In this document: positions 51,398 through 56,836 of the stretch, piece by piece
How positions within the stretch are numbered: position 1 is the first letter of the stretch
How the letters are laid out: every line of letters starts with the position of its first letter
NCBI RefSeq assembly: GCF_041886205.1
Contig: NZ_CP169029.1
Direction: 5' to 3' (one strand)
DNA from: Escherichia coli
GTDB taxonomy: Bacteria > Pseudomonadota > Gammaproteobacteria > Enterobacterales > Enterobacteriaceae
Length of the DNA: 64,000 nt
Notes under the pieces: model-generated
What the model was told of the DNA's origin: nothing
Databases searched by the model: none
Seen by the model: the letters and a program-made list of their open reading frames with translations, nothing else
Translations under genes and position numbers: made by a program

Positions 51398-53659
51398 TTA
51401 CCCCCGACGCAAGTTCTGCGCCGCCTGCACCATGTTCGCCAGTGCCGCGCGGGTTTCTGGCCAGCCGCGCGTTTTCAGGCCACAGTCCGGGTTGACCCAC
51501 AGGCGCTCTGCCGGAATGCGTTTTGCCGCTTTCTTCAGCAGGGCTTTAATCCATTCCACGCTCGGTACGTTTGGCGAGTGAATGTCATAGACGCCTGGAC
51601 CGATTTCATTCGGATAATCAAACTCTTCGAACGACTCCAGCAACTCCATGTCAGAACGCGAAGTTTCGATGGTAATCACATCCGCATCCAGCGCCGCAAT
51701 GGAATCCATGATGTCGTTGAACTCGCAATAACACATGTGAGTGTGGATTTGTGTGTCATCTTTCGCCACGGCGGCGTTGATACGGAAGGCCTCTACGCCC
51801 CACTGGAGATAGGCGTCCCAGTCGCTACGACGCAGCGGTAAACCTTCGCGCAGCGCCGGTTCGTCAATCTGGATGATACCAATCCCTGCCGCTTCCAGAT
51901 CGGCCACCTCATCACGCAGCGCCAGCGCAATCTGTTTGGCGATGGTTTCACGGCTGACATCTTCACGCGGGAACGACCAGCAGAGTATGGTCACCGGCCC
52001 CGTCAGCATCCCTTTCACCGGTTTGTCGGTCAGCGATTGCGCATACTTCGCCCACTCCACGGTAATCGGTGCCGGGCGGCTAATGTCACCAATGACAATC
52101 GGTGGCTTCACGCAGCGGGAACCGTAGCTCTGTACCCAACCGTTTTGCGTAAAGACAAATCCGTCGAGGTGCTCGCCAAAGTATTCCACCATGTCATTAC
52201 GCTCGGCCTCGCCATGTACCAGCACATCCAGTCCCAAACGTTCCTGCTCAACAATGGCCTGCTTGATATGTTCCGCAATGCCCGTGCGGTAGTTGTTGGC
52301 GTCGAGATTACCCTTTTTGAAATCCAGACGCAGGGTACGAATTTCCGTGGTTTGCGGGAAAGAACCAATCGTGGTGGTCGGCCACGCTGGCAGTTTAAAA
52401 CGCGCACGCTGGGCTTCGGCACGCACTTCATAGACATTCGCACGCTGGCTGTCCTGGGCGGTGATCGCCGCCAGACGCTTTTCTACCGCCGGATTATGTA
52501 CACGAGTAGAGTGACGACGCGCCTGAATTGGGGCGCTCCACTCTGCCAGAGCTGCCGTGTCACCACTGTTCAGCGCATCGCGCAGCAGTGCCAGTTCATG
52601 GCATTTTTGTAGGGCGAAGGCAAACCAGCTTTTCACTTCTGCATCAAGACGCGTTTCCACGCTCAGGTCGATGGGGCTGTGCAGCAACGAGCAGGAAGAT
52701 GCCACCCACAAATCACGTTTGCCGACAATGTCCTTAATTTGCGCATATTTCTCGGTAAGATCGGCGCGCCAGACGTTACGACCATTGATCAGACCCGCAG
52801 ACAGCAACCAGTCAGAAGGTAGGCGCTTGTGCAGTTCAGCAACGTCATCTTTACCATGTACAAGGTCCACATGCAGCCCCTGAACAGGCAGCGCAGTAAT
52901 CGTGTCGAGGTTTGGCGTTACGCCTTCAAAATAGGTGGTCAGCAGCAGTTTCACCTGGCCCTGGAGCGCGTCGTAAGCGGGTTTGTATGCGTCCAGCCAC
53001 GCCTGCGGTAGTTCCAGTACCAGCGCGGGTTCGTCGATCTGTACCCACTCAATGCCGCGTTTTGCCAGTTCTGCCAGCACTTGCTGATAAACCGGCAGAA
53101 TGTCGTTCAGCAGGCTCAGGCGGTCAAATTGTTCACCTTTCACTTTCCCCAGCCACAGCCAGGTAACCGGCCCCAGCAGCACAGGTTTCACCTTGTGGCC
53201 CAGCGCCAGCGCCTCGTCCACTTCGTCCAGCAGCTGCGTCCAGGTCAGTTTGAACTGTTGGCCTTTAACGAACTCCGGCACCATGTAGTGATAGTTGGTG
53301 TTAAACCATTTGGTCATTTCCGCTGCCGCCGCAGGTTCGCCAGTTGGCGCACGTCCACGACCAATACGGAACAGGGTGTCGATATCTACCGAACCATCTT
53401 TGTTCTGATGACGTGGCGGAACATTACCCAGCAGCAGACTGGTGGTCAGTACATGATCATACCAGGCAAAATCGCCCACCGGCAGCAGGTCGATACCCGC
53501 TTGCTTTTGTTGATCCCAGTGACGAGCACGCAATTCACGCCCTACCGCCAGCAGTTCTTCACGCGTGGAGTTCCCCGCCCAATAACTCTCTTGCGCTTTT
53601 TTCAGCTCGCGACGCAGGCCAACGCGAGGGAAACCGAGGGTGTGATTAAGAATTGTCAT
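51398..53659 (-). CDS. metE: cobalamin-independent methionine synthase
   Basis: 753-aa ORF recognised as MetE. Confidence 0.97.
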
Positions 53660-53764
53660 TATATGCCCCTTATGGAATTTTTAGTATTTAGCCGTCCAGA
53701 TGTTTACACATCCATAATTGGCGGTTACTGTATATTCCTCAAGCGCAAATTATTCATGCCGAAG

Positions 53765-53777: not shown

Positions 53778-54730
53778 TGATCGAAGTAAAACACCTGAAA
53801 ACGCTACAAGCGTTGCGGAACTGCGGCTCTCTCGCAGCCGCTGCGGCGACGTTGCATCAGACGCAATCCGCCCTGTCTCACCAGTTTAGCGATCTGGAAC
53901 AACGCCTTGGCTTCCGGCTATTTGTGCGTAAGAGCCAGCCGCTACGCTTTACACCGCAGGGAGAAATCCTGTTGCAACTGGCAAACCAGGTGCTGCCGCA
54001 AATCAGCCAGGCACTGCAAGCCTGCAATGAACCGCAGCAGACGCGTCTGCGCATTGCCATTGAGTGCCATAGCTGTATTCAGTGGCTGACGCCCGCGTTA
54101 GAAAATTTCCATAAGAACTGGCCGCAGGTAGAGATGGATTTTAAATCGGGCGTGACGTTTGACCCGCAGCCTGCGTTGCAACAGGGCGAGCTGGATCTGG
54201 TGATGACCTCCGATATCCTGCCGCGCAGTGGCCTGCATTATTCGCCGATGTTCGATTATGAAGTACGCCTGGTGTTAGCGCCTGACCATCCACTGGCGGC
54301 AAAAACGCGTATTACACCGGAAGATCTCGCCAGCGAGACGCTATTAATTTATCCGGTGCAGCGTAGTCGACTGGATGTCTGGCGGCATTTTCTTCAGCCG
54401 GCAGGCGTCAGCCCGTCACTGAAAAGCGTCGATAACACCTTATTGTTGATTCAGATGGTTGCCGCGCGGATGGGTATTGCCGCGCTACCGCATTGGGTAG
54501 TAGAGAGTTTTGAGCGCCAGGGTCTGGTGGTCACCAAAACCCTGGGCGAAGGCTTGTGGAGCCGACTGTACGCCGCCGTGCGCGATGGCGAGCAGCGTCA
54601 GCCGATTACAGAAGCATTTATTCGCTCAGCGCGCAATCACGCCTGCGATCATCTGCCGTTTGTGAAGAGCGCGGAGCGACCCACTTACGATGCACCCACA
54701 GTGAGGCCAGGATCACCAGCGCGCCTGTAA
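53777..54730 (+). CDS. metR: LysR-family transcriptional activator MetR
   Basis: 317-aa ORF with N-terminal HTH. Confidence 0.95.
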
Positions 54731-55517
54731 TAAACGTTGGCCAGTGCGGCTGTTGGTGCCAGATAGCCAGGTTAACCAGCAGCCCTGCCGGAACGTGCAT
54801 ATTATTCATAATGCCCAGCGTTCCGGCGTCCACCTGCGTCGCGCCGTAGTTCCACATAAAGTAGCCAATCCCGGAAGCCACCACGCCAAGAAACACCAGA
54901 ATGCCCCATTGCAGCGTGGTTTGCGGCATTTTCTGCGCATTTCCCAGCAAGAACCATGCAATTACCGCCACCAGGAACGCGCCAAGATAGAACCACGCAA
55001 AGGCGTTATGCTGCGGCATCGGGCGAGTTTCCATCAGGCGTTTGTAACCCACCATGCCGATGGCAAAAGTGATATTGGAGAGTTGCACCAGCAACAAGCC
55101 AGTCCAGAAATGGTCGGTGACCTGATCATAGCGAATAATCCCGGCACCAATCACCGCCAACAAGGCACTAAAAGCATATCCCCAGCGCAGACGGCGCTTA
55201 CTCATGATGTCATAAATCAGCGTGATGTAGAGCGGCGTCAGTACGGTGAACAACAGCAGTTCGGAGACCGTCAGGTAGAGATAGGCGCGGAAACTCAGCA
55301 TATACATCACGCCAAGCTGCATCGCGCCCACCAGCATATACAGGCCGACTGTTTTCAGGCTATTGCCACGGGTACGCAGAAACGGCAGAAAAACGAGCGC
55401 CGCCAGGCCAACTCGCACCAGCACCGCAAAATAGCTATCGACGTGCCCCGCAAGGTACTCGCCATAAAAGCTAAAGGAGAAGGCCCACAGAATCGTGGTG
55501 ATGATAAGTAGCGCCAC
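54618..55517 (-). CDS. yigM: DMT/EamA-family transporter (biotin transporter BioP/YigM)
   Basis: 299-aa ten-helix membrane ORF; 3' end overlaps the metR 3' end by 113 nt. Confidence 0.88.
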
Positions 55518-55608
55518 ACTGGAAAACTCTTTGATTAACGAGTATCCATTGTAGCGAAGTATCAGGTTGACAACTGTTTAATGTTTGCTCAATCGTGTGC
55601 GTTTTTAC

Positions 55609-55971
55609 TCATCGTCCAACGTTACCCGCTGCAACGAAAAGTAGTTGATTAATAATGGATTCACGCGCGCTCTCCACGCTCAGATTCCAGTACTTGGTGT
55701 CGAGAGCCAGTTTCATAAAAGGCGCGTGCCAGTCTTGTTCTCTTTTTTCAAAAACCACTTCAGCGACTTTATAGCCCGTCCAGCTACGATACAAATGCAA
55801 AACGTTATTCTCAAAATAGATAAACCATTTGTATTCCATCGCTGGAGGAATAAACCCCATTTCCAGATTACGCATTTGCGCTTCATCTAACGTCAAATTA
55901 AGCTCAACCCTCTGCCAGTCAACGGTAAATGCTTTGAGGTTATGCCAGCTTTGCTTCGTCGCTTTTGTCAT
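55609..55971 (-). CDS. hypothetical protein (120 aa from MTKATKQSWHNLKAF..), not recognised
   Basis: only long ORF in the 518-bp yigL-yigM spacer; Trp-rich (6 W), AT-richer than neighbours, weak SD (AGGGAA); unclear whether it is an annotated gene. Confidence 0.35.
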   Translation of the reverse strand: MTKATKQSWHNLKAFTVDWQRVELNLTLDEAQMRNLEMGFIPPAMEYKWFIYFENNVLHLYRSWTGYKVAEVVFEKREQDWHAPFMKLALDTKYWNLSVESARESIINQLLFVAAGNVGR

Positions 55972-56035
55972 GCGTATTCCCTGCCTGGTTTTTAAGTGCT
56001 CTCCCGCAATCAACGTAATGCGGGAGAGGCTGGCA

Positions 56036-56836
56036 TTAACTGAGATAGAGTTTACGCAGATAATGCGGTACCGCGTCGTCGGCATTAGTACCAATCACTT
56101 CCAGCTCTGGATGCAGATCTTTCAGCCGTTGATGCGCGCTGCCCATAATGCAGCCTTTCCCCGCCATCGACAGCATTTCGGCGTCGTTCATCCCGTCACC
56201 AAAGGCAATACAATCCTTCAGGCTGTAGCCCAGTTTCTTCGCCACCGCTTCCAGCGCATGGCCTTTCGACACGCCGCCCGCCATCACTTCCAGACAGGTT
56301 AAGGTAGAGAAACTGACGTTGACGCGATCGCCCCAGCGAGCGTTAATCGCCTGCTCCAGCGGCAGCAGTTGTTCATGGGAATCGCAGGTGAAGAACACTT
56401 TGCTGACGCCTTCCGGCTCCAGTAATCCAGGCTCATACAGCGCATATTTGAACACCGCTTCTTTAAAAAAGCGCATCTCTTCCGGGCGATGGCGATTCAT
56501 AAACCATTCGTCGTCGCGATAAACGTTAGTAATGATGTCCGGATTGTCGTTGACCACACCAAACAGATCGCTGGCAATGTCGCGATCCAGGTTATGAGCA
56601 AAAATCAGATTACCATCCAGATCGTGAACGCGCGCGCCATTGGAGGTAATCATGTAAGACTTGATCTCCAGATTATCGCGAATTTGCCCCACATCGACGT
56701 GATGGCGACCAGTCGCAAACACAAAGTTGATACCGCGCGCGGTAAGCAGCTTCAGAGTTTCTTTGGCGTAAGGAGATAACGTATGGTCGGGAGAAAGTAA
56801 CGTGCCATCTAAATCAGACGCAACAACCTGGTACAT
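56036..56836 (-). CDS. yigL: HAD-superfamily (Cof-type) sugar/pyridoxal phosphate phosphatase
   Basis: 266-aa product from MYQVVASDLDGTLL (HAD motif I DxDGT); track ORF is extended 42 codons upstream into pldB. Confidence 0.88.
   Translation of the reverse strand: MYQVVASDLDGTLLSPDHTLSPYAKETLKLLTARGINFVFATGRHHVDVGQIRDNLEIKSYMITSNGARVHDLDGNLIFAHNLDRDIASDLFGVVNDNPDIITNVYRDDEWFMNRHRPEEMRFFKEAVFKYALYEPGLLEPEGVSKVFFTCDSHEQLLPLEQAINARWGDRVNVSFSTLTCLEVMAGGVSKGHALEAVAKKLGYSLKDCIAFGDGMNDAEMLSMAGKGCIMGSAHQRLKDLHPELEVIGTNADDAVPHYLRKLYLS

Follow-up and report, generated by a model that had tools for sequence, protein, structure and literature searches.

Several families of proteins that act on ADP-ribose have been described. 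NUDIX, ADP-ribosylglycohydrolase (ARH), Macro, and NADAR domains are structurally unrelated, and what they have in common is a substrate class, namely, ADP-ribose, its derivatives, and ADP-ribose attached to proteins or nucleic acids. Macro and ARH also supply the catalytic activity of established antitoxins and immunity proteins (DarG and Tri1), in which a small additional module, the C-terminal toxin-binding domain of DarG or the N-terminal extension of Tri1, is carried on Macro or ARH in a conflict context. A comparable arrangement exists in the CARF, SAVED, and SLOG sensors of nucleotide-signaling immunity and in the SRA, EVE, and HARE-HTH readers of modification-dependent restriction enzymes, where one small domain is fused to nucleases or nucleotide-removing enzymes. 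Here, we describe a 120-amino-acid protein encoded in a 64,000-nucleotide stretch of Escherichia coli DNA (the window; NCBI RefSeq assembly GCF_041886205.1, contig NZ_CP169029.1), by a minus-strand accessory gene at positions 55609..55971 between yigL and bioP. The gene product consists of a single small alpha+beta domain that has not been described before, here named X, and nothing else. Relatives of X are fused to all four of the ADP-ribose families, and we give an even chance to the overall explanation that this Escherichia accessory gene encodes an ADP-ribose recognition module.

X resembles the DarG and Tri1 modules as a small domain found on Macro or ARH in conflict contexts, with stand-alone versions as well. 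However, X has no sequence or structure match to any solved chain, and no DarT- or Tre1-like toxin lies beside the fusions that were inspected. Moreover, we know of no DarG or Tri1 module fused to NUDIX, NADAR, or nucleases, as X is. The likeness to CARF, SAVED, SLOG, and the reader domains is one of analogy only; X differs from them in fold and sequence, and no TIR, Sir2, or ADP-ribosyltransferase (ART) was identified nearby. Since X would work like these known modules without belonging to any of them by sequence or significant structural similarity, we regard the family as new, but of a known kind of system, NAD and ADP-ribose conflict and repair.

The family emerged in stages of increasing sensitivity. 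A tblastn search against plasmids returned weak matches, in which X was either part of a larger protein or, in Proteus and Methylobacterium, a small open reading frame (ORF) without annotation. Iterated profiles gathered 70 proteins and then 2,611, and an exhaustive search with HMMER across 1.84 billion representatives raised the number to 3,057 at an E value of ≤1e-3 and 2,102 at ≤1e-10; the resulting family size of approximately 3,000 counts clusters at 50% identity. In the exhaustive search, P0002, the 95%-identical representative of the cluster to which the window protein belongs, scored 126.6 bits (E = 3.7e-32). Nearly all members are 110 to 200 residues long and carry the label "hypothetical," and X occurs most often on its own, in a protein about as long as that of the window. 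Ten positions are nearly invariant (E. coli numbering, G39, P42, M45, E46, K48, W49, R62, S63, W64, and G66), and they define the family motif G..P..ME(D/Y)KWF ... (H/Y)RSWTG, which in the window protein reads G..P..MEDKWF ... HRSWTG (i.e., G39..P42..M45-E46-x-K48-W49-F50 ... R62-S63-W64-T65-G66). Six other members (P0215, P0216, P0217, P0229, P0251, and P0350) have two matched stretches each and are apparently tandem X-X proteins.

A profile check for a domain, as suggested in an earlier sequence-only reading of this spacer, thus led to a large homologous family but not to a known one. The window protein had no match in Pfam, NCBIfam, or PADLOC even at an E value of ≤1, and no chain in the PDB matched the X profile in a sequence profile search. 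Comparison of 64 family members with Pfam likewise found no family for the X region; the matches were to fused NUDIX domains, plus six single-member chance matches with E values of about 0.1 to 0.2. Searchable literature on the accession, on REase-ARP, or on a named domain fused to Macro, ARH, NADAR, or NUDIX contained no description of X, with specialist supplementary catalogues and InterPro/CDD falling outside the scope of that search. Finally, tblastn against 50,697 phage records produced no match to X and only 5 relatives were present in 2.9 million IMG/VR contigs, and thus, the family is not typically phage-borne.

An AlphaFold2 model of the window protein (predicted local distance difference test [pLDDT], 89.6; predicted template modeling score [pTM], 0.84) has the order strand-helix-strand-strand-strand-strand-helix. 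The model has no significant neighbor among solved structures. Candidate folds, short of significance, are the TBP-like and KA1-like two-layer sandwiches (the TBP half-domain, the AlkA N-terminal domain, the phosphoglucomutase C-terminal domain, and KA1). The conserved residues map to the loop between helix 1 and strand 2 and to the turn between strands 3 and 4. In the model, invariant glutamate, lysine, arginine, serine, and two tryptophans placed in two adjacent loops would fit a nucleotide-binding site better than a toxin-specific interface.

The functional clue comes from the proteins to which X is joined. A first sample, 85 loci from metagenomes and viral contigs with about 26 multidomain host ORFs, was scanned with Pfam; ARH occurred in 7 of these ORFs (as both ARH-X and X-ARH), Macro in 6 (Macro-X), and NUDIX in 1, with NADAR present in 2 that are both Macro-X-NADAR and are counted among the 6 with Macro. 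A second sample, which came from another library and whose overlap with the first is unchecked, took the longest 48 of the representatives that the exhaustive search had found. It contained NUDIX in 10, ARH in 4, Macro in 2, and a LEM-3-type GIY-YIG domain in 2, as well as single cases of McrBC, PD-(D/E)XK/REase-ARP, GmrSD_C, HIRAN, HARE-HTH (together with NUDIX), and a calcineurin-like phosphoesterase. A profile built only from solo copies scored X in 27 of 27 fusion proteins tested (57 to 145 bits, nearly full length), and the E. coli protein alone detected all 27 at an E value of ≤1.6e-6 for a nominal database of 1e6 sequences. The window protein itself has no Macro, ARH, NADAR, or NUDIX domain, and the catalytic domains occur only in its fused relatives. 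X is also fused to membrane proteins of the Vut_1/YhhQ-type transporter and PEMT/ICMT-type methyltransferase kinds (L058 565-1827, L087 1490-2623, and L062 3998-4822); these fusions have no obvious place in the ADP-ribose theme and could be membrane effectors.

Because X is fused to all four ADP-ribose families and also to nucleases of the kind seen in modification-dependent restriction and to DNA-binding HIRAN or HARE-HTH domains, it is most simply read as a recognition module for the ADP-ribose moiety. A functional tie between X and ADP-ribose processing is, in our judgment, probable; that the role of X is one of binding or recognition, and not of catalysis or toxin binding, comes a little short of an even proposition. 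We propose that X would recognize the ADP-ribose moiety either in a free ADP-ribose-derived nucleotide or on an ADP-ribosylated macromolecule, possibly a nucleic acid, and would present what it binds to the eraser or nuclease in the same polypeptide. With a free nucleotide as the ligand, the fusions would follow the sensor-effector and sensor-degrader logic of CARF, SAVED, and SLOG; with an ADP-ribosylated nucleic acid, they would follow the reader-eraser and reader-nuclease logic of modified-DNA readers. The solo E. coli protein may do the binding alone and so read or sequester this ligand in NAD or ADP-ribose conflict (e.g., toxin or phage defense). The boldest form of this proposal, in which X is an undescribed reader or sensor for an ADP-ribose-derived ligand or ADP-ribosylated nucleic acid, coupled to erasers and effector nucleases in immunity as a new counterpart of the CARF, SAVED, and SLOG sensors or of modified-DNA readers, with solo copies serving as sponges or readers, is tentative, and we consider it possible but doubtful.

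Operon partners agree with the fusions. A conserved pair, in which a gene for an IMPase (inositol monophosphatase family)-ARH fusion precedes NUDIX-X, lies at 1706-4810 of L011 (the Rhodobacter sp. CZR27 plasmid) and at 861-4160 of L036 (an IMG/VR contig). In Rhodobacter, the X frame runs upstream of its annotated start into the 3' end of NUDIX, and hence either that start has probably been misassigned or NUDIX and X used to be one gene. Elsewhere, 12 bp separate an ARH-X gene from a Macro gene upstream of it, another ARH-X gene shares an overlap with a gene for an HD domain, and a Macro-X-NADAR gene is followed by RlaP. On Aeromonas plasmid pE31A, a gene with an N-terminal domain, NUDIX, and X is near an ARH gene, with WYL, DUF262, and SNF2-related genes nearby. 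Neighbors of the inspected Macro-X genes encode an esterase, a FakA-like fragment, an oxidoreductase, and RlaP, and DUF4433 (darT) is not among the 25 commonest neighbor families of X members.

In Aeromonas, the homolog is 46% identical and always lies in a defense island between urease accessory genes (ureG) and folD. There, X directly follows an MksB/MksE/MksF/DUF7281 operon, which we take to be Wadjet-like, and precedes genes for an RmuC-domain protein, AbiEi, and PIF1/TOTE or methyltransferase-helicase proteins. The island (Aeromonas chromosomes L025-L029 4356-20537, and L043/L044) contains insertion sequence (IS) copies. The Aeromonas protein is 178 amino acids long with an overlapping 142-amino-acid ORF in some strains and a single 314-amino-acid ORF in others; because of these split and joined forms, the ancestral protein looks like X plus a C-terminal domain, one that Rhodobacter CZR27 has as well. 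Other solo X genes occur in the anti-restriction cargo region of an element resembling an integrative and conjugative element, in a prophage, where an HTH_3/dnstrm_HI1420 antitoxin-like gene lies 46 bp downstream, and in plain chromosomal settings. In Proteus mirabilis H63, a 110-amino-acid solo X gene (L015 4992-5324) is found between an Ldh_2-type dehydrogenase gene and serS, without annotation in the PLSDB table; the H63 record is filed as a 4.08-Mb "plasmid" and is evidently a chromosome.

Three candidate associations were considered and set aside. A conserved partner was rejected because the 111 immediate neighbors of X genes are a mixed set in which each family appears three times at most. 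Synteny with rmuC was dropped, since the Aeromonas RmuC-domain protein belongs to the variable defense island. A recurring alpha/beta-hydrolase neighbor (in Providencia, in L081, and in E. coli, where pldB lies two genes upstream) occurred in too few cases to be distinguished from chance.

Is the E. coli ORF a gene? The sequence-only reading had left two alternatives for it, a low-expression or acquired gene and a spurious ORF in a regulatory spacer. The gene is almost certainly real, as evidenced by conservation at the locus itself and across genera. A search of 5.8 billion clustered proteins recovered close relatives at 95% and 83% amino acid identity, in addition to the 46%-identical Aeromonas group, and homologs beyond Escherichia occur in Aeromonas, Proteus, Providencia, Methylobacterium, Sphingomonas, and many metagenomes. 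The 83%-identical allele (88% at the nucleotide level) comes from L010, which is labeled E. coli and is collinear with the window over 7.6 kb at 93.6% identity. The frame is intact at the same locus in L010, in L018, and in E. fergusonii L121, and every full-length allele keeps the invariant motif of the family complete. Between the window and L010, the number of synonymous substitutions per synonymous site (dS) is 0.355 for the ORF, 0.339 for pldB, and 0.344 for yigL; because the value for the ORF matches those of the flanking genes, the gene has been at this locus as long as the lineages have diverged. The ratio of nonsynonymous to synonymous rates (dN/dS) is 0.24 in this comparison, and it is 0.17 (dS, 0.41) between the E. 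fergusonii copy and L010, which represent two deep allele classes; across diverged orthologs, the values are 0.24, 0.19, and 0.17 at a dS of 0.36 to 0.41. Flanking housekeeping genes have dN/dS values of 0.02 to 0.05, i.e., the value for the ORF is 5 to 10 times higher. The ORF is therefore under purifying selection that is weaker than that on its housekeeping flanks, and the conservation and Ka/Ks check that had been proposed came out in favor of a gene.

The composition that drew attention to the ORF was described accurately for the most part, and the translation agrees with the one given in the sequence-only reading. Tryptophan makes up 6 of its 120 residues, and its GC content of 0.438 (0.483 at third codon positions) is below the 0.51 to 0.56 (0.54 to 0.68) of six neighboring genes. 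Five rare codons are indeed present (AGG, AGA, CTA, GGA, and CGA), but at 4.2% their frequency is unexceptional, as the neighbors have between 0.8 and 5.3%. Conservation, purifying selection, and a foreign-looking base composition mark an accessory gene and fit the first of the two alternatives. As for the term "unrecognized," the ORF already has a RefSeq/PGAP annotation in every carrier, as hypothetical protein WP_000158817.1, but with no name, family, or function; its 90% cluster (Escherichia) is likewise labeled hypothetical.

K-12 does not have the gene, and neither do more than 99% of E. coli. By megablast of the spacer against 5,426 complete E. coli genomes, the segment is full length in 8; a further 5,229 genomes match over no more than the 57 bp beside bioP (spacer query positions 3 to 59), and a more sensitive search with the rest of the spacer found the same 8 genomes only. 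No species-representative Escherichia genome carries the gene; the genome scan that covered them matched Aeromonas media only. The exact protein is present on 406 contigs. The 518-bp spacer had been taken for the normal K-12 arrangement; its length is right, measured from the bioP (yigM) start at 55517 to the yigL stop at 56036, but K-12-type genomes have 75 bp here, as in the K-12 derivative RP437, whose yigL-bioP spacer lacks the ORF. The sequence-only reading could not place the ORF in K-12 because K-12 lacks the gene.

Several observations weigh against an ADP-ribose recognition module that functions in E. coli. The proposed link to ADP-ribose is one of guilt by fusion. About half of the multidomain relatives have no recognizable partner domain, the first sample includes ill-fitting partners (Vut_1 in 2, PEMT/ICMT in 1, and GNAT in 1), and ARH or Macro accounts for only 3 of the 111 immediate neighbors. 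In E. coli, the neighbors are housekeeping genes with no ADP-ribosyltransferase nearby, and a promoter scan found no promoter-like site upstream of the ORF; the putative signal for translation is an AGGGA motif read from the sequence. The closest alleles show 6 replacement versus 1 silent changes. In E. coli 6EVA (L003), a 13-bp tandem duplication (AACCTCAAAGCAT) at about 1830-1860, equivalent to about 55920-55945 of the window, shifts the frame, and RefSeq then annotates an 88-amino-acid remnant from a downstream start. Truncated forms are also on record (P0004, P0079, and P0082).

Whether X is still useful in E. coli is consequently uncertain, and some of this evidence would suit a decaying relic that was functional in an ancestor or donor, is idle in present E. 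coli, and hitchhikes on the yigL-bioP haplotype. Such a relic could be confined to 8 genomes, would leave independently truncated and frameshifted copies and an excess of replacement changes among near-identical alleles, and might have both the raised dN/dS relative to its flanks and the lack of the C-terminal extension seen in the Aeromonas and Rhodobacter relatives. We consider this explanation unlikely, however, since dN/dS stays well below 1 over a dS of about 0.36 to 0.41, full-length alleles keep the motif, the exact protein is seen on 406 contigs, and a solo domain of this length is the usual form in the family. The spurious ORF, in a regulatory spacer or the bioP 5' untranslated region (UTR), has next to nothing left in its favor. 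It was suggested by an AT-rich stretch without a Pfam match between two genes, and it is refuted by frame conservation (dN/dS, ≤0.24) and by homologs in other genera with highly significant profile scores; moreover, the spacer is missing in K-12-type genomes, the model has a confident fold, Rfam has no match, and the region is annotated as a coding sequence rather than as bioP promoter or 5' UTR.

Two other explanations accept the ADP-ribose context and assign X a different role in it. X might be an orphan immunity protein or antitoxin that blocks an ADP-ribosyltransferase toxin by protein-protein binding instead of recognizing ADP-ribose. Its fusion to Macro and ARH, the catalytic domains of DarG and Tri1, is in keeping with this idea, as are its small size, its patchy and often mobile or defense-associated distribution, and the prophage copy with the HTH_3/dnstrm_HI1420 gene downstream. 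We nonetheless hold it to be quite unlikely: no ADP-ribosyltransferase is found among the 25 commonest neighbor families or beside the inspected fusions, and in Escherichia, the adjacent genes are yigL and bioP, with no toxin-antitoxin or toxin-immunity partner. Strict conservation of charged and aromatic loop residues over approximately 3,000 diverse clusters would also be unusual for toxin-specific binders, and the nuclease and NUDIX fusions would go unexplained. Alternatively, X could itself be a small enzyme for an ADP-ribose-derived or other nucleotide substrate, catalyzing one step of a pathway with NUDIX, Macro, ARH, IMPase, or HD proteins. In favor of this, a Glu/Lys/Arg/Ser constellation is invariant, and sequentially acting hydrolases do stand beside X (IMPase-ARH with NUDIX-X, Macro with ARH-X, and HD with ARH-X). 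With only about 100 residues, no similarity to a known catalytic fold, and fusions to restriction-type nucleases, HIRAN, and HARE-HTH that fit targeting or sensing better, an enzymatic role appears improbable.

The locus of the gene is constant. The order is pldB-yigL-[gene]-bioP-metR, also in E. fergusonii and in the divergent lineage, and the ORF, which starts with ATG, is on the minus strand, as are yigL (HAD phosphatase; 56036..56836, minus) upstream and bioP (yigM, biotin transporter; 54618..55517, minus) downstream. Alignment with K-12 RP437 delimits a variable segment of 467 bp (55577..56043), comprising the ORF, a hairpin, and both short flanks, which corresponds to 24 bp in K-12. Its right edge falls inside the last two yigL codons, which together with the stop are CTC AGT TAA here and TTA TCG TAA in K-12, both encoding Leu-Ser-stop. 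At the other edge, genome matches and alignments show that the bioP-proximal 59 bp (55518..55576, minus strand) are common to essentially all E. coli (5,237 of 5,426 genomes match over spacer query positions 3 to 59), and the bioP leader and promoter-proximal region is undisturbed by the extra gene. Insertion as part of a mobile element (e.g., an IS, a miniature inverted-repeat transposable element [MITE], or a cassette) was rejected: neither terminal inverted repeats nor a target-site duplication is present at the edges (55577 and 56043), there is no nearby mobility gene, the edge is synonymous within yigL codons, and the neighbors are core genes. Rather, the gene moves among lineages and species by homologous recombination of its core flanks.

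Sequence variation around the gene bears the mark of such exchange. The yigL allele of the window is 100% identical in exactly the 8 carriers, and the next best complete genome has 97.7% identity. Overall, yigL is at least 99% identical to the window allele in 8 genomes, 95 to 99% identical in 4,635, and 90 to 95% identical in 782. High yigL polymorphism across E. coli suggests frequent recombinational import at the locus. Mismatches to K-12 number 0 per 100 bp across pldB and 1 to 7 per 100 bp from about 56950 leftwards. In E. fergusonii L121 (GCA_048109445.1, 3106-7195), pldB is 89.6% identical to that of E. coli (dS, 0.52), while yigL-ORF-bioP-metR is approximately 98% identical (dS, 0.04 to 0.08). 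L121 thus carries a tract exchanged between species by homologous recombination, and the junction falls where pldB meets yigL. L121 also has a Transposase_31/Rpn-like gene between rhtC and rhtB. A metagenomic allele presents the converse mosaic, with an ORF that is 98.1% identical and flanks that are only 94 to 96% identical. Farther away in the window, positions 53600-53699, in the metE-metR divergent control region and metE 5' end, have 14 mismatches per 100 bp to K-12 and 1 to L010, a local allele swap in the metE-metR intergenic region.

The accessory segment brings its own putative expression signals. A Shine-Dalgarno-like AGGGA (55978..55982, minus strand) lies 6 nucleotides before the ATG and may serve translation; the divergent L010 allele has GGTGAT in its place. 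Past the yigL stop and ahead of the ORF, where the sequence-only reading had pointed to a hairpin, an inverted-repeat search located a perfect 10-bp inverted repeat with a 10-nucleotide loop (55999..56028, minus strand). This hairpin, with arms CTCTCCCGCA and TGCGGGAGAG, begins 7 nucleotides after the yigL stop and is part of a fold of −23.3 kcal/mol (z = −2.1). The hairpin is part of the accessory segment and is missing from K-12. Its 3' flank (CACUUAAAAACC) has no U-run, and so it is not a canonical intrinsic terminator; a terminator scan found 0 sites, and Rfam covariance models had no match at an E value of ≤1 across 55400-56200. In L010, the stem is nearly unchanged (one position of the 5' arm differs, with the loss of one pair), while 5 of the 10 loop bases differ; in L018, a G-C pair has changed to G-U, for which pairing is kept only in the sense-strand RNA. 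The hairpin is a putative mRNA element that may, for example, set a 3' end or block processing at the border of yigL and the added gene. The gene itself is probably cotranscribed with pldB-yigL through this U-less hairpin.

As a feature of E. coli, the finding is an ordinary one, an accessory gene that few strains carry at a core locus subject to recombination. It shows, nevertheless, that homologous recombination alone can spread one such gene across Escherichia species while its core site stays fixed, and it carries a lesson for E. coli genomics, which is that a window such as this one should not be assumed to be K-12. The wider value lies in the family, approximately 3,000 clusters with no Pfam, NCBIfam, or PADLOC entry and no solved relative, whose architectures tie together four unrelated ADP-ribose families and several restriction-type nucleases. 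The 120-residue single-domain E. coli protein would be convenient for biochemical and structural work. If the proposed recognition of ADP-ribose is true, X would add a missing reader or sensor component to bacterial NAD and ADP-ribose conflict systems.

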